The notes under the pieces: generated by a model
Told to the model about the DNA's origin: nothing
Databases searched by the model: none
The model's input: only the letters and a program-made list of their open reading frames with translations
Program-made: the position numbers and the translations under genes
Shown here: positions 11,315 to 51,708 of the stretch, in pieces
Position numbering within the stretch: position 1 is the first letter of the stretch
Layout: each line of letters opens with the position of its first letter
Source of the DNA: a virus
Lineage: Duplodnaviria > Caudoviricetes
DNA length: 56,451 bases
Reading direction: 5' to 3' (one strand)
IMG/VR virus record: IMGVR_UViG_3300026518_000669
Span: 1-56,451 of that record

Positions 11315-11647
11315 CTACCACATTGAAATTGCTAGGTATGTGCCGATAATTATCGCGATAGGAGAAAAGAAAAGCATGGTCTCGCCTAGCTTTGAGGCAA
11401 AGAATGTCATTACAGGCATAGCCGCTATGGTTATAACGATGGCGTAAGCCAGGGTTTCCCATTCAGAGTTAAGCGCAAGTCTTCCCAGAAAAGCCAGTGC
11501 AAACAAAAAACCTGCAATCGAAGCGACAGGAAGTGCCAGCTTAAGCCATTCCCATGACCCCCTAAAGTTTCGAGCATGGACATTCACCAGCCACATACAG
11601 CATCTAAAAATGGCCCACTCAATCAGCATATGCGCCTCCCCATTCAA
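11315..11647 (-). CDS. Membrane protein co-transcribed with cI
   Basis: Three to four hydrophobic segments; start overlaps the cI stop. Confidence 0.7.
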   Translation of the reverse strand: MNGEAHMLIEWAIFRCCMWLVNVHARNFRGSWEWLKLALPVASIAGFLFALAFLGRLALNSEWETLAYAIVITIAAMPVMTFFASKLGETMLFFSPIAIIIGTYLAISMW

Positions 11648-12363
11648 TCAAAAACTTCCCACCAAAACACGCGGCCTATAATTTTCGGTGAGTCCGGCCC
11701 CATCAGGCTATAAGTCTCTTCGGGATACTCGTCTGCATTGTCGCTAACCAAGCGCACGCGCCCCAGGGGCATCTTGTAGAGGCGCTTAATGCGCAGCATG
11801 CCCCCGTGGTCGAGCGCGTAAATCTTGCCATCGATGATGTGGCGAGTGCCCTTGTCGATAGCAATAGGGGAGCCATCGGCAATCGTGGGCATCATGGAAG
11901 TGCCGCTGGCAGTTGCGCAGGCGGCATTGCTGGGCGAAACGTTGCGCGCAGCCAGCTTGCTTAACGGGAAGCGCATGGTGTGACCACCGTTTTCAACTAC
12001 CTGCGTGCGGCCATCACCAGCAGCAAACTCTACTTCTCTAAAGCACGGCAGCTCTACCTCATCAGGCCTTAGTGGCGCGGCGCCTTCTACAATTTCGGTC
12101 GGGTGCAGTATTAACTCATCCGTACCCGCCGAATATCCAGCGCGAGGATCGCGGGCACCTTCCATCATGCCTTCGCCAGTCGCCAGCCAGCGGGCATCCA
12201 CCCCGCAGACAGAAGCTATCTGAACGAGGTACGCGCTTGAGCGTGATTCTCCGCGCTCAAGTTCAGAGAGAGAGGGTTGGGTAATGCCAATCGCCTTGGC
12301 CAACTCTCGCTGATTCAGCCCTGCGTGTTTGCGGGCACGCTTCACCCGGTCGCCGATATTCAT
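11644..12363 (-). CDS. cI: CI-like repressor (HTH_XRE + S24 peptidase)
   Basis: IGDRVKRARKHAGLNQRELAKAIGITQPSLSELERG; AAG cleavage site; GTSMMPTI and IKRL catalytic motifs. Likely start is ATG 12363. Confidence 0.93.
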   Translation of the reverse strand: MNIGDRVKRARKHAGLNQRELAKAIGITQPSLSELERGESRSSAYLVQIASVCGVDARWLATGEGMMEGARDPRAGYSAGTDELILHPTEIVEGAAPLRPDEVELPCFREVEFAAGDGRTQVVENGGHTMRFPLSKLAARNVSPSNAACATASGTSMMPTIADGSPIAIDKGTRHIIDGKIYALDHGGMLRIKRLYKMPLGRVRLVSDNADEYPEETYSLMGPDSPKIIGRVFWWEVFD

Positions 12364-12376
12364 ATTTAAGCAAGAT

Positions 12377-12456
12377 ATAGGCTGGCCTATATGCTTGCAA
12401 AAAGGAGTTCCTATATCTAATATATCGGTAATCCTTTCAGTATTAGGCATACCTAT
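12377..12456. promoter_or_regulatory. OR operators and PR promoter
   Basis: 14-bp palindromes ATAGGCTGGCCTAT (12377), AAAGGAGTTCCTAT (12401), ATCGGTAATCCTTT (12424) and TTAGGCATACCTAT (12443) match the OL sites; TTGCAA (12395), 17 bp, TAATAT (12418). Confidence 0.8.
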
Positions 12457-17975: not shown

Positions 17976-18292
17976 TCGAGCGTCCGACGCAGTGGCCAGA
18001 CGGTCGCCCGTTGGGAGGCACCAATGGCTATCCCCCTGAGTGGCACGATTGGGCGCGTCAGTGCGAAGTGAAGCACATCGCTCGGCAAATGCTCAAGGCG
18101 CCACAAGCTCAACGAAAGGCCGTGCATGAGCAGTGGGTAAAGAAGTTCCCGCACGCAACACCGCAACGGATAAAAGATGTTTGGGAACAAGTAGTTGAAG
18201 AAGAACGCGCAACGCGGCAGGGCAACAAAACGCAACAGACGCGAAATATCGCAACGAAAACGCAACGGCAGCGCAACGGCAGGGGGTGGTGA
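17972..18292 (+). CDS. Hypothetical protein
   Basis: Coupled ORF; EWHDWARQCEVK motif. Confidence 0.6.
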   Translation: MIERPTQWPDGRPLGGTNGYPPEWHDWARQCEVKHIARQMLKAPQAQRKAVHEQWVKKFPHATPQRIKDVWEQVVEEERATRQGNKTQQTRNIATKTQRQRNGRGW

Positions 18293-18906
18293 TGCGTTAC
18301 GGCTCGGCACGGCAGATGATTTTTGATTGCTACCATGAACAGCGTGGCAGCGTGATGCAGCACGCTGCAGAGATAGCGCGCATGGGTGCGCAGATACAGA
18401 CGACGCAGCGCAATAACAACGACTGGCGGATAGTGCATGGTCTTGAAGCGGGGCAAGTTATTAGCGTCGTTGAGCGCTTGCCGCAGCACCTGCAGTCATT
18501 GGCGCGGTACTGCTTCGGCCCGTTTACCCGCGACGAACTTGCCGAGGATCGGGAATGGCTGCATGCCGCGCTGATGCACGCTGGCATGCAGATGCGGCTA
18601 CCAGGGCAGGGGCAGAGCGAATATCCGACAGCAGAGGCAGCGCGTCAGCTGCGCTGGATAGTATCGGCAGCAATTCACCACCACGCTGAGACCACGTACC
18701 CGTATAACCGACCAGGGCTGCATAATCCTCGGCGCATTGCTGCGTGGATTGAAGCAGAGCATGGGGAAGCGGTAGATGTTGGTCGCTGGTCACGATCAGG
18801 GCGCGCTTGTTGGGGTGGCGTTTGGGAGCGGTTGCTGGATGTGCTGGATACATGGGAGTGTTCAGCGCTTGCGCCGGTGGCTGCGCTGATTAGTAAAGCG
18901 GCTTAG
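18286..18906 (+). CDS. Probable late antiterminator/activator (Q position)
   Basis: Last gene of the nin region before the late promoter; assigned mostly by position. Confidence 0.55.
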   Translation: MVMRYGSARQMIFDCYHEQRGSVMQHAAEIARMGAQIQTTQRNNNDWRIVHGLEAGQVISVVERLPQHLQSLARYCFGPFTRDELAEDREWLHAALMHAGMQMRLPGQGQSEYPTAEAARQLRWIVSAAIHHHAETTYPYNRPGLHNPRRIAAWIEAEHGEAVDVGRWSRSGRACWGGVWERLLDVLDTWECSALAPVAALISKAA

Positions 18907-18930
18907 ACTAAAGGCGAACAAAAATAATAT

Positions 18931-18959
18931 TTGCAAGGGGAAATAATTTCCCATAAGCT
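18931..18959 (+). promoter_or_regulatory. Sigma70 promoter with a palindromic operator in the spacer
   Basis: TTGCAA, 17 bp, TAAGCT; GGGAAAT-A-ATTTCCC at 18938-18952. Confidence 0.7.
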
Positions 18960-19004
18960 GTGGTTATCGAAGCAGCAAACACCAACCGCAGCGGAGAAAA
19001 TAAC

Positions 19005-19262
19005 ATGAGCTACAACATCCAAGGCCAGCTTTTCAACACGCGCGATGAAGCACTTACCAAACTAGTAGCGCTATGGGTTTCTAATGGCGGCGAGCAAACC
19101 GACTGGGATGAAATCAAAAGAGCCCTGAACGACAGCGATACCCCCGCCGAGATTATCGAAGAATGGGGCGGCAGTCTGGGCGAATTTGTGGAAGAAGCCG
19201 ACGAAGGTGAGCTGGTCGATCATATCAAAACCCGCAAAACTGACATCATCGCCGCTTGCTAA
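19005..19262 (+). CDS. Small acidic protein, candidate anti-CRISPR/anti-defence
   Basis: 85 aa with 19 D/E versus 7 K/R; GGAG RBS; first gene of the operon ending in the aca1-like gene. Confidence 0.7.
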   Translation: MSYNIQGQLFNTRDEALTKLVALWVSNGGEQTDWDEIKRALNDSDTPAEIIEEWGGSLGEFVEEADEGELVDHIKTRKTDIIAAC

Positions 19263-19318
19263 TAAAAAACCAAACCCTGGCAATGACCAGAGCCTGAAAA
19301 CACAAAGGAGCTTCTATC

Positions 19319-19609
19319 ATGGCGGCAGTAACTCAAGACGATATTAATACTTTTATATCTACATTCATTGACGTAACAGAAGGCACGCGGGAAGGAACTT
19401 TCTGCTGGGCACTAAGCAAAATGGCAAATGTGACCAGCGCAAGAGAAATGCAGATCATGGGCGACGGGCACAAAACACACCAATCAGCCATGTTTGCAGG
19501 TATTGGTTACATCAAGAAATGCCGGAATGATCTTTATCGGGCAGCGCAAAAAGAAGCAATCGAAAGCGCTCGCTACATTGCGATGAAAAACAAGGCCGCT
19601 AATGCATGA
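19319..19609 (+). CDS. Small protein, candidate anti-CRISPR/anti-defence
   Basis: 96 aa; AAGGAG RBS; ATGA-coupled to the aca1-like gene. Confidence 0.7.
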   Translation: MAAVTQDDINTFISTFIDVTEGTREGTFCWALSKMANVTSAREMQIMGDGHKTHQSAMFAGIGYIKKCRNDLYRAAQKEAIESARYIAMKNKAANA

Positions 19610-19806
19610 TCGACGCCCGCACCCACTACGACCCGGCCAGAGCGCCGGGCTTAATCGCCTCAGCAACCAAAACGGCAGGCTCACAAAAAGAGCTAGCGGA
19701 GCAGCTGGGCGTGACGCCGCGCACACTTCGCCATCTATCCCGCCGCGAGCGCGATATGTCGTACACCATGCAAGTAGCGTTAGAACAGATCACGAATAGC
19801 GGATAG
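19606..19806 (+). CDS. Aca1-like HTH repressor (anti-CRISPR associated)
   Basis: DARTHYDP...GL...AGSQKELAEQLGVTPRTLR...YTMQVALE parallels Pseudomonas Aca1 as I recall it (DASNHDPDP..GL..AGISQRRAAELLG....R...YTVQFALE). Confidence 0.75.
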   Translation: MIDARTHYDPARAPGLIASATKTAGSQKELAEQLGVTPRTLRHLSRRERDMSYTMQVALEQITNSG

Positions 19807-19807
19807 C

Positions 19808-19884
19808 TTGCAGGATGGGCACGAACCAACCATAATATCCCCACTATCTAATTCTACGCCCTGGCTTTGAGCCGGGGCGTTTTC
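19808..19884 (+). promoter_or_regulatory. Late promoter (PR'-like) followed by a terminator (tR'-like)
   Basis: TTGCAG, 17 bp, CATAAT; hairpin ACGCCCTGGCT-TTG-AGCCGGGGCGT followed by T-run. Confidence 0.7.
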
Positions 19885-19953
19885 GATTCAGGCCCTGCCA
19901 GTCTCTGGTGTGGCTTTTCTGTTTTCCCCCGCCGTGAGGCGCTGGAGCCCTAC

Positions 19954-20580
19954 ATGACAACCTCCCTCAAGCAACGACTGGTCGCCTCGGTCATGGATCG
20001 AGAGGGTGGCTACGTCAATCACCCGTCTGATCGTGGCGGCCCGACCAATTACGGCATCACTGTCGCGGTAGCGCGTGAGAACGGCTACCAGGGTGATATG
20101 CGCAGCCTGCCGAAGTCACTGGCCGTGCGTATCTATGAAGCACGCTACTGGACAAGCATTCGCCTCGACCGCATCGCGCCGATCAGCGCCACGCTGGCAG
20201 AATACCTGTTTGACTTCGGCGTTAACTCTGGCCCAGGCCGAGCGGCGCAAGAGCTGCAGCGCACGCTTAACGTGCTGAATAGTCGCGGCAAGCTGTTTCC
20301 TGATCTCAATGTGGATGGTGCCGTGGGGCCTGTCACGCTGAACGCGCTTGCCGATTACCGCAAGGCGCGTGGCGGCGCTGGACTGTACGTGCTGGCAGAA
20401 TCTATCAACGGTGTGCGCATCGCCTTCTGTCGCGGGCTGGCTGAGCGAGACGAACGACAAGAGGACTTCGCATACGGGTGGTTTAAGCGCGTCGTCAATC
20501 TGCGCAACGAAGTTGAAAGCGATCAGGCGGACAGCATGGCGGTTTCGCTGTATGCCGAAATTGATACTGAGGTGGCCTGA
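19954..20580 (+). CDS. Endolysin, glycoside hydrolase family 108 with PG-binding domain
   Basis: EGGYVNHPSDRGGPTNYGIT, FDFGVNSG, DGAVGPVTL and FAYGWFKR motifs. Confidence 0.93.
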   Translation: MTTSLKQRLVASVMDREGGYVNHPSDRGGPTNYGITVAVARENGYQGDMRSLPKSLAVRIYEARYWTSIRLDRIAPISATLAEYLFDFGVNSGPGRAAQELQRTLNVLNSRGKLFPDLNVDGAVGPVTLNALADYRKARGGAGLYVLAESINGVRIAFCRGLAERDERQEDFAYGWFKRVVNLRNEVESDQADSMAVSLYAEIDTEVA

Positions 20581-20900
20581 TGCCATGGCGAAACACCGGA
20601 CTGATACAGGAGGTGCTGCTGGCGTTAGGTACGTCAGTGGCAGTCGTTATGGGTCTACTCGCTAAGATCGCTCACGAGGTCAAAAGCGGTGAGCGTGAAC
20701 GTTTCTTCACGCGCCGATTGTGGCTGGATGCGCCTGCGCTGGTCGTCATGATCACGATGGCTGCCGGTATCAATCTCTATTTCGACCTGACCGGCTGGCC
20801 TGCGTCTGCCGTGGCAGCGGTATGCGGCTGGGCGGGCCCGCGCAGTATCGACCTAATGCTCCTGGCCCTGGCTGACCGCGTGAGGGGTGCCAAAAAATGA
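20580..20900 (+). CDS. Putative holin
   Basis: Small protein with three hydrophobic segments directly after the endolysin. Confidence 0.7.
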   Translation: MPWRNTGLIQEVLLALGTSVAVVMGLLAKIAHEVKSGERERFFTRRLWLDAPALVVMITMAAGINLYFDLTGWPASAVAAVCGWAGPRSIDLMLLALADRVRGAKK

Positions 20901-43971: not shown

Positions 43972-46900
43972 GTGAACGCCGCCGAAGACCGCACACCGCC
44001 CAAGTGGACAGATATCGCCAATGACCCAGATTTTCAGGCCGCTGACTGGCAGACAAAGCAGCGCGTGCGAGGCGAGTTCTACCGCCGCGCCATTGAGCCC
44101 AATACGCCAGCATCGCTGCGCGAAGATGTGCAAAGCCAGTTCTTTGCCCGCACGGCATCTGACGTGTTTGGTGAGCGCGAAACACCCAATTTAGCCAGCA
44201 ACGCTTTGCGTAACGCTGGTGAGCGCGGCCTCGATTTGGCGGGCAATGCGCTGCAGTTCGTGGGCAACGTGGCAGACCGTGGAGAGCAGGCAATTACCGA
44301 CGCGCTTGGAGGCATTAACCCGGGCGTGATCGGTGGCAGCGTTGACGAGATGCGCGAGCGGGGCTACGAACCGGATGTGGCGCTAGGTGGCTTTGGCCTA
44401 GACTTCACGATGCGCGCCAAGCCAGAGGATACCAGCACCGGGCTTATCGACACTGGGCAGGCGGTTGAAGACATTAGCCTAGGCTACCAGCCTAACTACA
44501 CGATTGACCGTGCCCTTGATGAACCAAGCATTAGAACCATCGCGGGCGCTGCTGCCGAGCAAGGGCCAGCAGCACTGGCCGATATGGCAGGCCTAGTGGT
44601 AAGTCTGCCTGCCTACCTAGCGGCGCGAACACAGGAGATAGGCGAAGGCCGTGTTGAGAACGACAACCGCGAAGGAATGCCGGAAGGTCGCGATTATGCC
44701 GTCTCTGGCCCGACGGCTGCCGCCTCTGTGCTGCTAGACCGCTTTGCTCTTGGCCGATTACTTCCAGGCAGTGGAAATGCGGTAACTAGCGCACGACAAA
44801 TACCCGGGGCTGTTGGTCGCGCCGCAGCTACAGAAAGTGTTACTGAGGCGATTCAAGAGGGTGGTATTGAGTACGCTGGGGAGTCTGTGGGCACTGAGAC
44901 AGGCTGGAATGCCACAACCGCTGCGCGCCGTGCGGCAGGTGGCGTGATTGTTGGCGGCCCCACCGGGGGCGCTGTGCGAGCTGGTACCGCCGCCATGGAG
45001 TTGCGCGGAAATAATCAGCAGGGAAGTGAGCAACCAGAGCCTAGCGAATCCCCTGCTGAGCAATCTTCCCCCGCTCCAGAGGAAGCGCCGACCCCAGAAG
45101 CTGAAACCGCTAATGACGAGGCAATCGGCACCGCTGCCGAACTAATCGCCAAGCCTCGTTTTGAGCTGTCATCCGCTGAGCGCGAAGTGCGCGACTCCAT
45201 TAGCTACGGCGATGCCTTTAAGGCTCTGCGAGCGGCTGCTGAAGCGCGCGGCGATAGTGACGCCGTTGCAGAACTGGACGCCGTTAGCAGCGAGATTTCA
45301 GCGGCGCTGGAAGCGGAAACCATAGCGCGCTCGCGAAACGATAGCGACGCTTTCACACCTATTCGTGAGCAGCTGAAAAGCGCGTCAGAGCGCTTCACGC
45401 GTGTAATGGATCGCCTTAACACGCCCGAGGCTGAGAGCAAGGCAAGCGCGCCCAGCGCTAACAAGGATGGCAACGCCCAGTGGGAAGAGGCTTGGCGCGA
45501 GCAAGCCGCCCAAGACGGCATTGCAGACTACGACCCTAACGCCAACCTGCCTGACACCACGATCACGATTAACGGTGAACAGGTGGCTGATGAATCTCTG
45601 GTGCCGCCCGAAACACTTGACGTTGCGCGCCAAGACGAGCAAGCAGAAGAAGTGACTAAAGAAGTGGGGCAGCCAGCAGTGGCCCAGCCTGAGCCAGCGC
45701 TTGCCCCCGACCAGCCTTCACCCAATCCTGACACCAAGACTCCGCGCCGCGTGCCGGTTGAAAGCATCCAGGTAGACCCCGAGGCCTACCAGTTCCGCGC
45801 CGAGGTAAACGATCAGGGCGTGGACACTCGCCTGGAAGGCATCGAGAAATGGGACGACCTACGTGCTGGCAACCTGATTCTGCATGAGCGTACCGACGGT
45901 AGCGTGTACGCTGCTGATGGTCACCACCGCATTAACCTAGCTCGCCAGCTACAACAGCCAGACGTGAACGCGATTGTGCTGCGTGAAGCCGATGGCGTTA
46001 CCGTTGAGGATGCGCGCCGTGCCGCCGCTGAGGCGAACATTGCCGCAGGCAGCGCTACTGCTTTGGATTCCGCGAAGGTATTCCGTAATAGCAATGGTGA
46101 TATCGATACGGTGATTCGTGAGAGTAACCTGCCGCGTACCCAGCTTGTGCGCGACGGTGCCGACATTGCCAAGCTGGACACTGAGCCGTTTGGTGCGGTG
46201 CTTAACAAGGTAATCACTGAGAAGGACGGCGCGGTTATCGGTCGTTCTTTTGCCGACCCCGACCAGCAGCTTGCCGCCGTGGGCGTCTTCCAGCGAGTGA
46301 AGCCGACCAACGACAATCAGCGCGAGTTGCTAGCCAATGAAGTGCGCCAAGCAGGCTTTGCCGAAAGCCAAGGCGAGCAAGGCGGCTTGTTTGGTAATGA
46401 TCCAGCAGAGTCGCTTATTGGCGAGCGCGTAAAGGTAATGGATAGCCTTCGCCAAACCCTGGTGCGCGACAAGCGCTTATTCGCTACGCTGAACGATAAC
46501 GCCCAAACGGCTGAGCAGGCAGGCAACCGCATTGCCAAGGACCGCAACAACGCCCTACAGGAAACCTCGGCAGACGCCATTGCACTGCTAGAGCGGGCGA
46601 CGACCACGCCGGAAATTAACCAGCAGATCAACGACGCCGCGCGCCGTGTGAAGGATGGCGAAACACTTGCCAGCGTGACGCGAGAACTTAAAGAGGCATT
46701 ACTAAATGGCACAAACAGCCCAGCAGCGAGCGAAGGACGTACACCAGCACCTAGCAGCGGACAGGCTGATCAAGCAGGGCAAGACGCTGGAAGAAGTGAA
46801 CCAGTACCTGCAAGCAACGACGCACGAACAGCGCGTTCAGGAGAACAACGCCCACGCCCTGGAGCAGGAGCGCAAGCAGAACCAGCGGTAACTCTAAAGA

Positions 46901-49900
46901 CTGACGGCACGCCTTTCCAAACCCGTCGCGCTGTTGAACTGTCTAGGCGCTTCCGCGACACGCCTAACGCCCAGCCCGTTGAAGTAGAGGGTGGATGGGG
47001 TTTTGCTGTGGCTGACACGCCTATGCAGAATGCAGAAAGCACTAAGCCAGCAGGCCAGAATGTTAGCGGCCTTACCTCGTTGCCTTATGGGGGCAAGCGT
47101 TGGAACAAGGGCACCAAAACGGCAGAGGAAATGAGCGGCCAGGCGCCTATCGTTGATTACTCCGGTCGCCGCGTTGTGCTGAAAGACGTTAATGGCGTTA
47201 CCGTGCCGTTCTATCAAAGCACTGGCGCCGGCGGCAAGGCAGCCACCAAGCCTGGGCAGTGGTATCCATTCACCGGCATTGGTAGCGATGGCTGGATTAA
47301 CAAGCTGGGCGATGCTGATATATCGCAATACTACGGCAGCCCAGCGCTGCGCCAGGCAGCGCAAGAGCTAGATGCTACGGTTGGTGACATTCGCAGTCGT
47401 GACGATATCCCTAAGACCGGCACGACCGGCACCGGCCAGGCGTTTATTGATGCGGTGAACAGTGCCTTTGATGGACAGCAGGTGTCAGCAAACAATCAGC
47501 CTGACTCAAAAATCAACGTTCAATCCAGCGTTGATGCACTAAAAACAGCCGTTGATTCACAGACCTCCGATCTGGCCCTCGAAACCCAAACAGAAGAAAG
47601 CCTTGCGCAACGCGAGCAGGAAGTTCAGGCCGCTGAACAGACCGAAGCCGACCAGCGCAACCAAGAAGCGCAGCGCGCCCAAGCAGACGCCGAGGTCGAC
47701 GACTTTACTCTATCCGGCAGCAATCGCACCGCTGATGTGGCTGCTGCACGCGGGCAGAGTGACCTGCTTGGCGCGCAGCCAGCGTCTAATGAAAATACTC
47801 CGCCAAGCGAGCAGCAGTATTACCGCGACTGGCCACTATTAGACGAGATGCCTGACGGCTGGAAGAGAGATCCGACCGCCGGATCACCCTTGGCCAGGTA
47901 CGAGTTTGCTACTAACGGCCGTAGCGTGCTGTCTGGCCAGCAAGAGCGTGCGTTAGTGCGAATCAGGCCCGCACCTGCAGCCGGCCAGAACACTGATTCA
48001 CCTACGGCCCAAGTCCAGCAGGATTTAGCCAACGAAGCGCCCAAGCCCAAGCGCCGTAACCAGCCGCTGCAATACACCGGCTACTCAGGCGAACAGCGCA
48101 GCGTGCGCAGCTATCAAGAGGTTGGTAACTTCCGCATTGCCAAGGTGAACGACAGCCTTTACGAAGTGATTAACCCTGATGGTCAAGCCGTTAGCCAGCG
48201 AGCGGGGGCGGACGGTGCCGCACAAGAGGCTCAGCGACTAAACGACCTCCCCGCCGACGACCAGCGCTACGCTATCGGCCAAAGCGACGCCCGCCCGGTA
48301 AGCCGTGACGCCATCGAGGAAGCGCTGGCCAGCTCGCCCGAACTATCCGATGTAACGGTGATCCAGTCCGCAACCGAGCTGCCGCCGCAATCCATCCTGA
48401 TGATGGCCTTGCAAGGCGTGACGCCACGCGACGTGCGCGGCCTGTTCGTGGGCGACCAGCTCTATGTGATTGCGGATAACGTTGATGACGTACAAGAGGG
48501 CGTGCGTACCGCCGTTCATGAAGCCGTAGGTCACAAAGGTATGCGCGCCGTGCTGGGCGACGAGCTAGAAACAGTCATGCGCCAAGTCTATAACTCGCTA
48601 CCATTAGATCCGCGAGGACGCGAGGCGCTGAACGAAGTGCTAGAAAGCTACCCGTTCCTTGATCAGTCCAACCCTGAACATCAGCTTACCATCGCTGAAG
48701 AGATGGTCGCCCACCTCACCGAGAAGGGCTGGCAGCCTAACGTAATACGCCGCGCCGTGGCTAAAATCCGCGAGCTGCTGCGCCGCTACTTCCCCAGCAT
48801 GAACTGGACGGATGCGGACGTTATGCAGCTATCCGAGCGTTCGCGTGAGTACCTGCGCAGCCAGCAGGAAAAGGCGCAAGCGAGTACTGATCCTTGGTCA
48901 GATATGCGCTTTTCAATGGCTACGCCCCCCGGCGGCAACTTTAATCCCAATGACAGCACCAACTTCGCGCTGCCTGATGAAACGCTAAGCCAAACCGCGT
49001 TACGTAAAATGGCTGACAAAATGAACCGCCTCAAAGTCACGCAAGAAGCTATCAAACAAGCCGGTGGCAACATCAATGAAGACAATGATGTGTACCTAGC
49101 GGAGGAGCTTTTCCACGGCAAAACAGAGCGTGACTTGAATGAGCTAAGCCGCAACTACGTCGAGAAGCTAGCCAAAGGCATGGCTGCGCGCGGCATTCAG
49201 CAAGAAGAGTTGGACGCCTACCTTTATGCTCGTCATGCTCCAGAGCGAAATGCCCGAATAGCTGAACGCAATCCTAATGATCCCAAGTACGCAGATGGCG
49301 GCTCAGGCATGACGAATGCCGAAGCGGCCGCCATCATGCAAGAGGCCGAAAGCAGCGGCAAGAAGCTCCGGCTTGAGCGCTTGGCCGCTATCGTGGATGA
49401 CATGCTGGCACATCGCCGCGAGATCATCCGCGAAGGCGGACTGGAGACGGATGAGGTGCTAGATGCTTGGGATGCCAGCTATGACTACTACGTACCGTTG
49501 AAAGGTTGGGCAAATGATGAAGATGTTCCTGTGGGCCAGGACGGCAGTGGCCGGATGCGTTCTGGTCGCGGCTATGAGATCGGTGGGCGAGAAACTAAAA
49601 CGGCGCTTGGTCGCCTATCAAAAGCGGCTTCACCTTCTACGCAAGCGATTGTCGATACCACTGAGTCTGTTATTCGCAAGCGCAAAAACGAAGTTGGCAA
49701 TGCCTTGCTATCACTGATCACGGATAACCCCAACCCCGATTTGTGGCAGGTGTTCACCAACAACGACCCGGATACTCAGCGTACTCAGGTCGAGCGCACT
49801 AACCCAGACGGCACCAAACGCATTGAAGTAGAAGAGCGCCCGGTAGCCATGGAAATGAACGAGCGTTACTTCAAAACCAAGAAGGCGGGCCGGACATACT

Positions 49901-51708
49901 ACATTAAGATCAACGACCAGCGCCTGCTGAACGCAATGCGCAATGTAGGGCCAGAGCAGAACAACCTGCTGGTACGTACTGCCGCAGCTGGCACACGCGC
50001 TCTATCCGCTATGATGACCAGCTATAACCCTGAGTTCATGCTGTCCAACTTTACCCGAGACGTGCAGACGGCGCTTCTGAACGTGGCGGCAGAGCAGACC
50101 AGGGACGACGGCAAGATAAAAGGCCAGAAGATTGCCAGGCAGACGGCGAGAGATATTCCCCGCGCCATGAAGGCAGCCTATCGAGGGCTTGCTGACCCTG
50201 ACGCATCACGAAACACTGAGTGGGATCGTTGGTTCGATGAGTTTATCGAGGATGGGGCCAAGACAGGCTACTTCGATATGAAGGATTTGGCTGGTCAAGC
50301 CAAAGAGATCAAAAGCATTATTGGCCGTGAGAACGGCGGCACTATGGGCAATATGCTGAAGGCGAAGAAGACCGTAGCCGACTTCGTTGAGAACATGAAT
50401 GGCTCCGTTGAAAACGCGGTGCGCCTATCCGCCTACGTCAATGCACGCAGGGCAGGCATTAGCCGCAAGAAGGCCGCCAGCTTGGCCAAAAACCTAACGG
50501 TCAACTTTAACCGCAGAGGGGAGGCCGGCACTGCGCTTAATGCTGCGTACATGTTCGCCAACGCCTCCATCCAGGGCACCATGAACGTCGCCCGCACAAT
50601 GGTCACTGTGAAAGATACGCCGGTGGGCGGTAATAGGATGAACATCTGGGGCCGCATGAACGCCGCTCAAAAGCTAGCGGTAGGTATGGCCGTAGGCAGT
50701 TACGCAATGGCCATGTTCAACCGTATGATGTCAGACGAGGATGATGACGGCGAGCTGTTCTATGACAAAATTCCCGGTCACGTTAAAGAGCGCAACCTGA
50801 TCATCATGACAGGCGGCAAGGACTATGTCCGCATTCCTTTGCCTTATGGATACAGCGTCTTCTCAAACATTGGCACGCACGCTGAATCCGTCATGTCGGG
50901 TAAATCATCACTGACGGAGGCAGGAAAGGACATGACGCTGGCCATTCTTGGCAGCTTCTCACCTATTGGCTTCCAGGATTCAGAGGATATATCCAATTTG
51001 GTGATGAAAAACCTCACACCTACGCTGTTAGGTTCGGTGACCCAGGTGGCAGTCAATGAGGACTTTGCAGGCCGCGTGATCTTTAAAGAGAACTTCCCCT
51101 CCGGCACGCCCAAGCCGTATAGCTCACTTGCCTTCCGCTCTACGCCATCGGCTTACCAAAGCTTTGCCCAGTTTATTAACGAGCTGACAGGCGGCAGCGA
51201 GTACCGGTCAGGCGGTATTGATGTTAGCCCTGACGTACTACAGCACGTGGTCAACTATTACGGTGGCGGTGCTTGGTCGTTTACTGAGAAAGTGGCCGAC
51301 AGCATTAAGCGTACAGCGACTGGCGAGACCATCGACGCCCACCGTATTCCGTTTGTGGGCCGCTTCAAGTCTGAGGTCAATGAGTACGGCGATATTCAAA
51401 CGTTCTACGAGCGCCGTACCGAGGTTGGGCAACTGCATGAGGAGTTTATCAATCTGCCTAGAGAGGAAGCGCGCAGTTTCTATGACGAACATGGCGGCAA
51501 GATAGCGCTGTTTGATATGGCGAAAGATCTTGAAAAAACGCTGACAGAACTACGCAAGGTGCGTGACGCCATCGAGGCCGATGAGCGCCTTACTCCTGAA
51601 GAACGCGACGAACAGCTCGACGAGATTGAAGACGCGATGGATAGCGAGGTGGATTTCTTTAACCTGCTTTACAACCAGGCCGAAGGGACGGTTCAGTCGG
51701 CAAAGTAA
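43972..51708 (+). CDS. Giant internal virion / polyvalent protein (ParB-like, zincin-like, C-terminal LPD38-like)
   Basis: 2578 aa; DGHHR ParB-like motif; HEAVGH..G/EEMVA metallopeptidase-like motif; YARHAPERN, NPEF..SNF.RD, TVNFNRRG and IPLPYG motifs. Confidence 0.85.
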   Translation: MNAAEDRTPPKWTDIANDPDFQAADWQTKQRVRGEFYRRAIEPNTPASLREDVQSQFFARTASDVFGERETPNLASNALRNAGERGLDLAGNALQFVGNVADRGEQAITDALGGINPGVIGGSVDEMRERGYEPDVALGGFGLDFTMRAKPEDTSTGLIDTGQAVEDISLGYQPNYTIDRALDEPSIRTIAGAAAEQGPAALADMAGLVVSLPAYLAARTQEIGEGRVENDNREGMPEGRDYAVSGPTAAASVLLDRFALGRLLPGSGNAVTSARQIPGAVGRAAATESVTEAIQEGGIEYAGESVGTETGWNATTAARRAAGGVIVGGPTGGAVRAGTAAMELRGNNQQGSEQPEPSESPAEQSSPAPEEAPTPEAETANDEAIGTAAELIAKPRFELSSAEREVRDSISYGDAFKALRAAAEARGDSDAVAELDAVSSEISAALEAETIARSRNDSDAFTPIREQLKSASERFTRVMDRLNTPEAESKASAPSANKDGNAQWEEAWREQAAQDGIADYDPNANLPDTTITINGEQVADESLVPPETLDVARQDEQAEEVTKEVGQPAVAQPEPALAPDQPSPNPDTKTPRRVPVESIQVDPEAYQFRAEVNDQGVDTRLEGIEKWDDLRAGNLILHERTDGSVYAADGHHRINLARQLQQPDVNAIVLREADGVTVEDARRAAAEANIAAGSATALDSAKVFRNSNGDIDTVIRESNLPRTQLVRDGADIAKLDTEPFGAVLNKVITEKDGAVIGRSFADPDQQLAAVGVFQRVKPTNDNQRELLANEVRQAGFAESQGEQGGLFGNDPAESLIGERVKVMDSLRQTLVRDKRLFATLNDNAQTAEQAGNRIAKDRNNALQETSADAIALLERATTTPEINQQINDAARRVKDGETLASVTRELKEALLNGTNSPAASEGRTPAPSSGQADQAGQDAGRSEPVPASNDARTARSGEQRPRPGAGAQAEPAVTLKTDGTPFQTRRAVELSRRFRDTPNAQPVEVEGGWGFAVADTPMQNAESTKPAGQNVSGLTSLPYGGKRWNKGTKTAEEMSGQAPIVDYSGRRVVLKDVNGVTVPFYQSTGAGGKAATKPGQWYPFTGIGSDGWINKLGDADISQYYGSPALRQAAQELDATVGDIRSRDDIPKTGTTGTGQAFIDAVNSAFDGQQVSANNQPDSKINVQSSVDALKTAVDSQTSDLALETQTEESLAQREQEVQAAEQTEADQRNQEAQRAQADAEVDDFTLSGSNRTADVAAARGQSDLLGAQPASNENTPPSEQQYYRDWPLLDEMPDGWKRDPTAGSPLARYEFATNGRSVLSGQQERALVRIRPAPAAGQNTDSPTAQVQQDLANEAPKPKRRNQPLQYTGYSGEQRSVRSYQEVGNFRIAKVNDSLYEVINPDGQAVSQRAGADGAAQEAQRLNDLPADDQRYAIGQSDARPVSRDAIEEALASSPELSDVTVIQSATELPPQSILMMALQGVTPRDVRGLFVGDQLYVIADNVDDVQEGVRTAVHEAVGHKGMRAVLGDELETVMRQVYNSLPLDPRGREALNEVLESYPFLDQSNPEHQLTIAEEMVAHLTEKGWQPNVIRRAVAKIRELLRRYFPSMNWTDADVMQLSERSREYLRSQQEKAQASTDPWSDMRFSMATPPGGNFNPNDSTNFALPDETLSQTALRKMADKMNRLKVTQEAIKQAGGNINEDNDVYLAEELFHGKTERDLNELSRNYVEKLAKGMAARGIQQEELDAYLYARHAPERNARIAERNPNDPKYADGGSGMTNAEAAAIMQEAESSGKKLRLERLAAIVDDMLAHRREIIREGGLETDEVLDAWDASYDYYVPLKGWANDEDVPVGQDGSGRMRSGRGYEIGGRETKTALGRLSKAASPSTQAIVDTTESVIRKRKNEVGNALLSLITDNPNPDLWQVFTNNDPDTQRTQVERTNPDGTKRIEVEERPVAMEMNERYFKTKKAGRTYYIKINDQRLLNAMRNVGPEQNNLLVRTAAAGTRALSAMMTSYNPEFMLSNFTRDVQTALLNVAAEQTRDDGKIKGQKIARQTARDIPRAMKAAYRGLADPDASRNTEWDRWFDEFIEDGAKTGYFDMKDLAGQAKEIKSIIGRENGGTMGNMLKAKKTVADFVENMNGSVENAVRLSAYVNARRAGISRKKAASLAKNLTVNFNRRGEAGTALNAAYMFANASIQGTMNVARTMVTVKDTPVGGNRMNIWGRMNAAQKLAVGMAVGSYAMAMFNRMMSDEDDDGELFYDKIPGHVKERNLIIMTGGKDYVRIPLPYGYSVFSNIGTHAESVMSGKSSLTEAGKDMTLAILGSFSPIGFQDSEDISNLVMKNLTPTLLGSVTQVAVNEDFAGRVIFKENFPSGTPKPYSSLAFRSTPSAYQSFAQFINELTGGSEYRSGGIDVSPDVLQHVVNYYGGGAWSFTEKVADSIKRTATGETIDAHRIPFVGRFKSEVNEYGDIQTFYERRTEVGQLHEEFINLPREEARSFYDEHGGKIALFDMAKDLEKTLTELRKVRDAIEADERLTPEERDEQLDEIEDAMDSEVDFFNLLYNQAEGTVQSAK

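Follow-up and report, generated by a model that had tools for sequence, protein, structure and literature searches.

The question raised by this locus is whether three small co-oriented genes, standing between the gene in the Q position and the lysis genes of a provirus, form an anti-CRISPR (acr) operon closed by its anti-CRISPR-associated (aca) repressor gene, and what the two proteins encoded ahead of that repressor might inhibit. The locus belongs to the IMG/VR provirus record IMGVR_UViG_3300026518_000669, analysed over its full 56,451 bases (the window). Its open reading frames (ORFs) of 85, 96 and 66 amino acids (aa), whose products are here called P0001, P0002 and P0003, lie where a preliminary description of the DNA had placed them (Table 1). 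They probably constitute a real acr-aca7 operon, a moron in the lambdoid prophage of a marine Halomonadaceae-type host, working by the mechanism proposed below. The core of the preliminary description, an acr-aca operon under a helix-turn-helix (HTH) autorepressor acting on a palindrome, draws support from Aca7 homology, the promoter layout and the presence of an AcrIF4 relative.

The identity of the repressor is the firmest starting point. Among PDB sequences, P0003 matches 9lx1, the Aca7 of Halomonas caseinilytica, with an E value of 2.6e-14; residues 1-66 of its 66 align without gaps and 33/66 are identical. The Aca1 chains of the PDB reach E 0.016-0.04 only, and the pairwise alignment with Aca1 of phage JBD24 gives 38% identity over 69 aligned positions with 11 gaps. 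By sequence, and with high confidence, P0003 is a member of the Aca7 family with a distant likeness to Aca1. The motifs that had led to its description as Aca1-like are real; it is the family that changes. P0003 is 50% identical to the Aca7 of another locus (L016), and a tblastn search of phage records with P0003 gave no match. According to the available part of the study of the reference protein (WP_064702654 / PDB 9LX1), Aca7 is a dimer, the mutants R5W, E29W and E32W being monomeric; it binds a 19-bp inverted repeat (9+1+9) in electrophoretic mobility shift assays, the repeat lying between a -35 TTGAAA and a -10 TATACT 17 nucleotides (nt) apart, and it represses the acrIF11-aca7 promoter (PMC12658196). 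P0003 keeps the dimer residues R5, E29 and E32 at equal positions.

The promoter region reproduces this arrangement. A TTGCAA-17-TAAGCT promoter with a perfect palindrome, GGGAAAT-A-ATTTCCC, in its spacer is present as first described. Widened to 18936-18954, the repeat has 9-nt arms with one mismatch, and the exact sequence occurs as a single copy in the window. Perfect 7+1+7 palindromes are not rare in themselves, since the window has six and Markov shuffles give 4.8 +/- 2.2. What is beyond chance is the position of the palindrome inside the -35/-10 spacer together with its recurrence across related loci. These were gathered from IMG/VR, metagenome contigs and two Halomonadaceae genomes; L012, whose sequence lies wholly within L025, does not enter the repeat count. 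A perfect repeat with arms of 7-9 nt and one central base stands directly 3' of the -35 hexamer in all of the first loci examined (8/8), and a perfect inverted repeat with arms of at least 6 nt lies inside the spacer in nine of the eleven Aca7-bearing loci. The -35 before the repeat occupies the same place in eight related Aca7 loci, as TTGCAA, TTGACA or TTGAAA. At this place the loci L009 and L011 carry a perfect 9+1+9 repeat, AGGGGAAAT-N-ATTTCCCCT, followed by the -10 hexamers TAAGCT and TAAAGT, respectively. The repeat is AGGAACA-T-TGTTCCT in L001, AGGAAC-AAC-GTTCCT in L025, and GATAACT-N-AGTTATC or longer forms of it in L002, L006, L014 and L016; the L016 promoter is letter for letter the published H. 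caseinilytica acrIF11-aca7 probe. Two loci depart from this scheme: a 6+3+6 repeat abuts the -35 on its upstream side in L022, and L018 has no spacer repeat with arms of at least 6 nt. In a locus of Halomonas salifodinae (L004) with a member of the P0001 family and no aca7, the promoter is good (TTGACG-17-TATTAT) and a repeat is absent.

The class of repeat tracks the recognition helix of the neighbouring Aca7. Helices of the form TPRT[LI]R.L go with GGGGAAAT, SR.YLQLL goes with GATAACT, and TPRYLRMV goes with AGGAAC. This covariation is the best in-silico support for the palindrome as a putative Aca7 operator, and it suggests that P0003 would bind GGGAAAT-A-ATTTCCC.

Further similarities are found in the 5' leaders. 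A block, CACGGTCAGGGGA.AG.CCC, about 45-65 nt 5' of the start codon, is common to L001 (370-400), L002 (3950-3980) and L025 despite their different operators. Another leader, ATCGAAGCAGCAAACAC...AACGGAG, is common to the window, L009, L011, L018 and L020. The conserved leader block might be a translational control element.

The middle protein can be assigned to a known anti-CRISPR family. P0002 matches the PHROGs family phrog_9769, 'type I-F anti-CRISPR', at E 2.1e-7 and, over its C-terminal helices, the AcrIF4 chains 7jzw_J (E 1.3e-6) and 7yhs_J (E 3.6e-6) of the PDB. A tblastn search of 50,697 phage records returned 39 records of Pseudomonas phages at 27% identity, of which 37 span 80% or more of the query, and no match outside Pseudomonas. 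The matching product of phage JBD24 is an annotated AcrIF4, encoded between an AcrIE gene and aca1; aligned pairwise, the two proteins match over the full length of both (27% identity, E 5e-11). An AlphaFold2 model of P0002, built without templates from an alignment of seven rows, one of them a partial AcrIF4, has a predicted local distance difference test score (pLDDT) of 85.7. Foldseek finds two matches for it in the PDB at E <= 0.001, both AcrIF4, the next standing at E 0.9; the template modelling (TM) scores are 0.72/0.74 to 7yhs_J and 0.70/0.68 to 7jzw_J. P0002 is therefore, with high confidence by sequence and predicted fold, a divergent AcrIF4 homologue. The protein is rare, with three close clusters in a word-based search and four in a profile search, and a search of viral contigs gave no match. 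The H. salifodinae locus L004 encodes a second such protein directly after its P0001 homologue; the identity of this protein is 31% with P0002 (E 2e-11) and 26% with JBD24 AcrIF4 (E 6e-7). Both upstream ORFs had been proposed as new, unrecognised Acr candidates; the 96-aa ORF loses that standing to a known family and the 85-aa ORF retains it.

P0001 is, as described, strongly acidic (19 D/E versus 7 K/R), with an isoelectric point (pI) of 4.16. Its close family comprises 21 clusters at 69-96% identity, and 20 proteins at E <= 0.001, nine of them at E <= 1e-10, came out of a profile search against 1.8 billion representatives. Most relatives are of 80-107 aa and share the N-terminal block MSY..G....R..A...L...[WFY][VL]S; the named ones, from H. 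salifodinae and an Alcanivorax metagenome-assembled genome, are all 'hypothetical'. No usable match was found in the ESM Atlas, none by tblastn in the 50,697 phage records or in 72,556 plasmids, and none in a first scan of genome contigs with the close family. Two longer acidic arrangements occur among the relatives: in a metagenomic protein of 298 aa (P0038), an N-terminal part of 83 residues resembling P0001 (E 1e-11) is fused with a long C-terminal extension of very acidic character, and in the metagenome locus L020 (743-1175) the gene after the P0001 homologue is not Aca7; it is an ORF exceeding 144 aa with an extremely high share of D/E.

The genomic setting of this family is more telling. 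Twelve distinct loci were found, of which ten are readable downstream, L021 and L023 ending at the gene. Homologues do flank genes of known anti-CRISPR loci: an Aca7-like gene lies in the operon in seven of the ten readable loci (the window, L001, L002, L006, L018, L022 and L025), and an AcrIF4-like gene is adjacent in two, the window and L004, where it takes the place of Aca7. In other loci as well, the P0001 homologue opens the Aca7 operon. Position within the element varies, the gene following the Q-position gene in the window and L001 and a tail gene in L002. One candidate Acr protein has been found with Aca7 according to the available part of PMC9410906, and it may or may not belong to the P0001 family. 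From these associations P0001 probably serves anti-defence of some kind, and inhibition of CRISPR is somewhat favoured as its particular role. The chances are evenly balanced that it founds a new Acr family of Halomonadaceae/Oceanospirillales phages, with type I-F as the likeliest target and a fold and mechanism that no solved Acr shares. A complex prediction with H. salifodinae Cas8f, Cas5f and its own P0001-family protein scored 0.00 and counts neither way.

A possible link with type I-F immunity is seen from the host side. The P0001 family occurs in two of 342 Halomonadaceae species genomes (G001 and G244), and both carry Csy3/Cas7f. Their I-F arrays have a 60-nt period, with at least 59 repeats in G001 (L026:1-3700) and at least 32 in G244 (L027:8061-10001). 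The single Cas1 of G001 is of type I-F; G244 has a type I-E system as well. The 89 spacers of these I-F arrays, compared with the window and the fetched loci, gave nothing longer than 19 nt with two mismatches, and so no sign of targeting or self-targeting from G001 and G244. A separate trace comes from a 178-nt contig (depth 7) of the RNA run X19. Its first 32 nt match 20091-20122, a part of the endolysin gene, exactly, and it continues as TTAGCTGCCGCCCAGGCAGCTCAGAAA, where 26/27 positions match the type I-F repeat of G244; the repeats of G001 and G244 each differ from that of the contig at one position. Because the spacer match adjoins an I-F repeat, the contig would be the transcript of a CRISPR array whose spacer is directed against this phage. 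Taking 20090-20121 as the spacer puts the protospacer-adjacent motif of type I-F, CC, at 20088-20089 in the window. As read from this one contig, the spacer is what ties the phage to type I-F pressure.

Sister loci show how readily the genes ahead of aca7 are replaced. L009/L010 and L011, from close relatives of this phage, have in common with the window the Q-position protein, the promoter and the 5' leader, and their Aca7 proteins are 85% and 77% identical to P0003. In the slot itself, unrelated acidic ORFs of 69 and 87 aa stand instead of P0001 and P0002, and L009 has a further acidic ORF of 107 aa after aca7; the 69-, 107- and 87-aa ORFs have no PHROG match. The cargo of L014 and L016 is AcrIF11 (PDB 6kyf, E 7e-9). 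To judge from these comparisons, the Aca7 slot is a fixed frame with exchangeable cargo. Such exchange is usual for acr loci. If the reading of P0001 is true, the slot would be a hotspot with at least three further undescribed inhibitor families, namely the 69-aa and 107-aa ORFs of L009 and the 87-aa ORF of L011.

These elements can be assembled into a mechanism. A sigma-70-type promoter, its -35/-10 spacer filled by the inverted repeat, would start transcription; a dimer of the Aca7-family HTH protein would then bind the repeat and shut the promoter after an early burst, as with the acrIF11-aca7 operon. Repression is modelled here on the studied homologue, with backing from operator covariation. 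P0002 would most likely bind the Csy (Cascade) complex of the host's type I-F system at the Cas8f-Cas5f tail and block recruitment of Cas2/3. According to the available part of PMC9637919, AcrIF4 inserts itself as a wedge between the Cas8f-Cas5f tail and the Cas7f backbone and keeps hold of the helical bundle of Cas8f, for which it needs L39 and F54; in this way recruitment of Cas2/3 is blocked. P0001 would most likely act as a further inhibitor, its target being CRISPR-Cas or some other defence system; the best guess, based on its charge, is a nucleic-acid mimic or a surface blocker of the type I-F complex.

RNA libraries bear on the expression of the operon. The 1401-nt stretch 18700-20100 is present in 20 of 24 listed runs (13 studies); six of the runs with it are recorded as RNA. 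Contigs were aligned from four RNA runs of four studies (X15, X16, X19 and X20). Two of them, from different studies, each contain one whole contig over the operon, 18971-19834 in X15 and 18966-19820 in X16, with no loose ends and five variant letters each. Both start 7-12 nt past the -10 hexamer and end 14-28 nt past the aca stop codon. X15 and X16 have no cover outside 18966-19834 within 18300-20600, which is no sign of silence there. X19 and X20 cover parts of the operon, and X20 extends at low depth to parts of the endolysin gene. Of the words sampled from the stretch, a fraction of 0.81-1.00 was present in DNA runs versus 0.53 in these RNA runs. Together these contigs, which cannot prove transcript ends, give a weak hint of a discrete operon transcript.

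Several observations weigh against this picture of the operon. RNA libraries can contain DNA, and their contigs are no proof of where a transcript ends. The -10 hexamer is weak (3/6 versus TATAAT), and a scan for consensus promoters did not call this promoter. P0003 has P, T, R and R at the proposed Aca7 DNA-contact positions R38, Y40, K46 and K49, with R39 beside P38. Because the operator sequence differs too, this change fits a changed specificity and gives no ground for exclusion, and the covariation of repeat class with recognition helix would account for the altered residues; moreover, conservation of the four residues is not strict across homologues of Aca7, as stated in the available part of PMC12658196. 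AcrIF4 L39 and F54 align by MAFFT to A41 and M44 of P0002, beside a 12-residue gap that makes the alignment uncertain, and P0002 is basic (pI 8.6 versus 5.0 for a partial Pseudomonas AcrIF4). Loss of L39/F54 is weak evidence because the host Cas8f differs too; if the model is right, the AcrIF4 fold has been kept and its contact surface must have adapted to a different Csy complex. For P0001, there is no match in Pfam, PADLOC, NCBIfam or the PDB, none in PHROGs at E <= 0.01 (a stray match stands at E 0.03), and no similarity to a known Acr in the searched libraries. Its model is of low confidence (pLDDT 63), has no Foldseek match in the PDB at E <= 0.001 and reaches a best Z of 4.5 in a wide VIA-align comparison, so that no fold can be assigned. 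Three of the ten readable P0001-family loci (L004, L019 and L020) have no adjacent Aca7, and L019 and L020 have no AcrIF4-like gene in its place. Finally, the co-occurrence with type I-F in two of two carriers is consistent but, against the base rate of 116/342 genomes with Csy3, not significant.

Aca-controlled loci mix anti-defence genes, and Pinilla-Redondo et al. reportedly found in 2020 that acr loci cluster with other anti-defence genes. The operon could, at a rather low probability, be one of anti-defence in which P0001 targets a non-CRISPR system, for example by mimicking DNA to counter restriction-modification or some other defence that binds DNA. The strong acidity of P0001 would suit such a role, nothing was found that connects it with one particular CRISPR component, and, as an AcrIF4-like I-F inhibitor is already present in the window, the second gene could target another system; G244 also has a type I-E system. 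Against this, nothing intervenes between the P0001 homologue and the Aca7-like gene in L001, L002, L006, L022 and L025, the sole CRISPR-Cas system of G001 is of type I-F, and all Aca7 partners studied so far are type I-F Acrs, as far as the available parts of PMC12658196 and PMC9410906 go.

More remote from an inhibitor of defence, P0001 might modulate Aca7 as an anti-repressor or co-factor, or be a moron with an unrelated host-directed role. Its function is unreadable from sequence or fold, and its linkage is tight to Aca7 (the seven of ten loci above) and not to a given Acr. This is improbable, however, since Aca7 works with AcrIF11 with no P0001-type partner (PMC12658196, available part; loci L014 and L016), the family adjoins an AcrIF4-like gene with no Aca7 in L004, and the sister phages L009 and L011 fill the slot with unrelated small acidic genes, a pattern that fits cargo open to exchange better than a constant co-factor. 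Very improbable, and the least probable of the three, is a toxin-antitoxin-like module of three genes with the HTH protein as antitoxin and autorepressor, an idea to which P0003 lends some colour through weak matches to antitoxin-type HTH proteins (YdaS_toxin at 27 bits, below the cut-off of 30; HigA at E 0.0012; an Xre-like antitoxin) and through a toxin-first, HTH-last order resembling HigBA (PMC9410906, available part). P0003 nevertheless matches Aca7 far better than any antitoxin family, the middle protein has the AcrIF4 fold, no toxin family of Pfam, PHROGs, PADLOC or NCBIfam is matched by P0001 or P0002, and the upstream cargo, AcrIF11 included, is freely exchanged. The acr-aca7 operon with two putative inhibitors remains the preferred interpretation.

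Several described systems can be compared with this operon. The H. caseinilytica acrIF11-aca7 operon, as described in the available part of PMC12658196, likewise ends in a gene for an Aca7-family HTH protein of 66-68 aa, about 50% identical, and likewise its 17-nt promoter spacer is occupied by an inverted repeat around a single central base; both operons are on mobile elements of the Halomonas group. They differ in cargo, AcrIF4-like plus acidic P0001 here and AcrIF11 there, in operator, GGGAAAT-A-ATTTCCC with perfect arms of 7 nt here versus ATGATAACT-C-AGTTATCAT with arms of 9 nt there, and in the four DNA-contact residues, which are P38, T40, R46 and R49 here (the same part of that source). 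AcrIF4 of Pseudomonas Mu-like phages (JBD24 gp36; 7JZW, 7YHS) resembles P0002 in fold (TM 0.70-0.74), in the conserved C-terminal helices H.T...AM.A..GY..KCR.DL...A...AIE...Y and in the location of its gene directly upstream of an aca gene. In contrast, P0002 is only 27% identical, lacks about 12 residues in the beta region together with L39/F54, has a pI of 8.6, and is paired with Aca7 and not Aca1, in a lambdoid phage of Halomonadaceae type and not a Mu-like phage of Pseudomonas. Aca1 of JBD30/JBD24 is, like P0003, a small HTH repressor ending acr operons, and the patches D-P...L, SQ..AE.LG and Y..Q.ALE are common to both; it is longer (74-79 aa) and, as a match to P0003, much weaker than Aca7 and in need of gaps. 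AcrIF2, AcrIF10 and AcrIIA4 are small acidic DNA-mimic anti-CRISPRs. P0001 is like them in size and pI (85 aa, 4.2), and mimicry would be a guess from charge alone; no similarity of sequence or fold to them was found.

The kind of system is already known, and among the three genes here the candidate novelty is the P0001 family, P0002 and P0003 belonging to known families. P0001 is a well-supported, testable candidate Acr family for which native host systems, such as the type I-F system of H. salifodinae, are at hand. The AcrIF4 family would reach beyond the Mu-like phages of Pseudomonas into lambdoid phages of marine Halomonadaceae, where it is paired with another repressor family, Aca7. The natural series of Aca7 proteins with co-varying recognition helices and operators could be useful to decode and re-engineer Aca specificity. 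Moreover, RNA-library contigs and a matching I-F spacer suggest that the conflict between phage and host is live in the sea.

The surroundings of the operon follow a lambdoid gene order (Table 1). The upstream neighbour had been described as a Q-like gene, for which the position speaks and family membership does not: phrog_3373 has no assigned function, and no match was found in Pfam or the PDB. Similarly, the operon had been called an AT-richer insert of three genes. The GC content is 0.46-0.50 across 18850-19600 versus about 0.55-0.64 on the flanks, and as the aca gene itself stands at 0.56-0.58, the AT-richer part comprises the promoter and the first two genes only. The sequences GGAG and AAGGAG precede the ATG of P0001 and P0002, respectively, and the ATG of P0003 overlaps the P0002 stop codon (ATGA). 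Neither Csy3 nor a tRNA was found within the window, and a megablast of the 5-kb region against phage records gave no match.

Table 1. Coordinates of the operon, its control elements and neighbours in the window, and of candidate ORFs in two sister loci.
Feature	Position	Strand	Remark
CI-like repressor	11644-12450	minus	
O-like initiator, DnaB-like helicase, NinB, HNH protein, RusA			between CI-like repressor and operon
206-aa protein in Q position	18286-18906		phrog_3373
-35 hexamer	18931-18936	+	TTGCAA
Putative Aca7 operator	18938-18952		inverted repeat GGGAAAT-A-ATTTCCC
-10 hexamer	18954-18959	+	TAAGCT, 17 nt from -35
Likely transcript 5' end	18966-18971	+	contig starts in X16 and X15
P0001	19005-19262	+	acidic 85-aa protein, candidate new anti-CRISPR/anti-defence
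P0002	19319-19609	+	AcrIF4-family protein, 96 aa
P0003	19606-19806	+	Aca7-family HTH repressor, 66 aa
Terminator-like hairpin	19856-19880	+	G+C-rich, 11 pairs (8 G-C), followed by T-run
GH108 endolysin	19954-20580		followed by holin and terminase subunits
Candidate anti-defence ORF	L009:2292-2501		
Candidate anti-defence ORF	L009:2709-3032		
Candidate anti-defence ORF	L011:2237-2500		

Downstream of the operon, the sequence TTGCAG-17-CATAAT at 19808-19836 is followed by the terminator-like hairpin and T-run, just upstream of the endolysin gene. This layout (19808-19880) is like the late promoter and leader terminator of lambdoid Q-dependent late operons, the assignment of Q being positional only. 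The hairpin may be the end of the operon or part of the late-gene leader; the RNA contigs stop short of it. An imperfect hairpin with 11-nt arms, 82% complementary and 32 nt apart, occupies 19764-19817; its end falls just short of the RNA contig ends (19820 and 19834), and the operon transcript may have a stable 3' end here. Further along, the tail region contains an ORF of 2578 aa on the plus strand (43972-51708).

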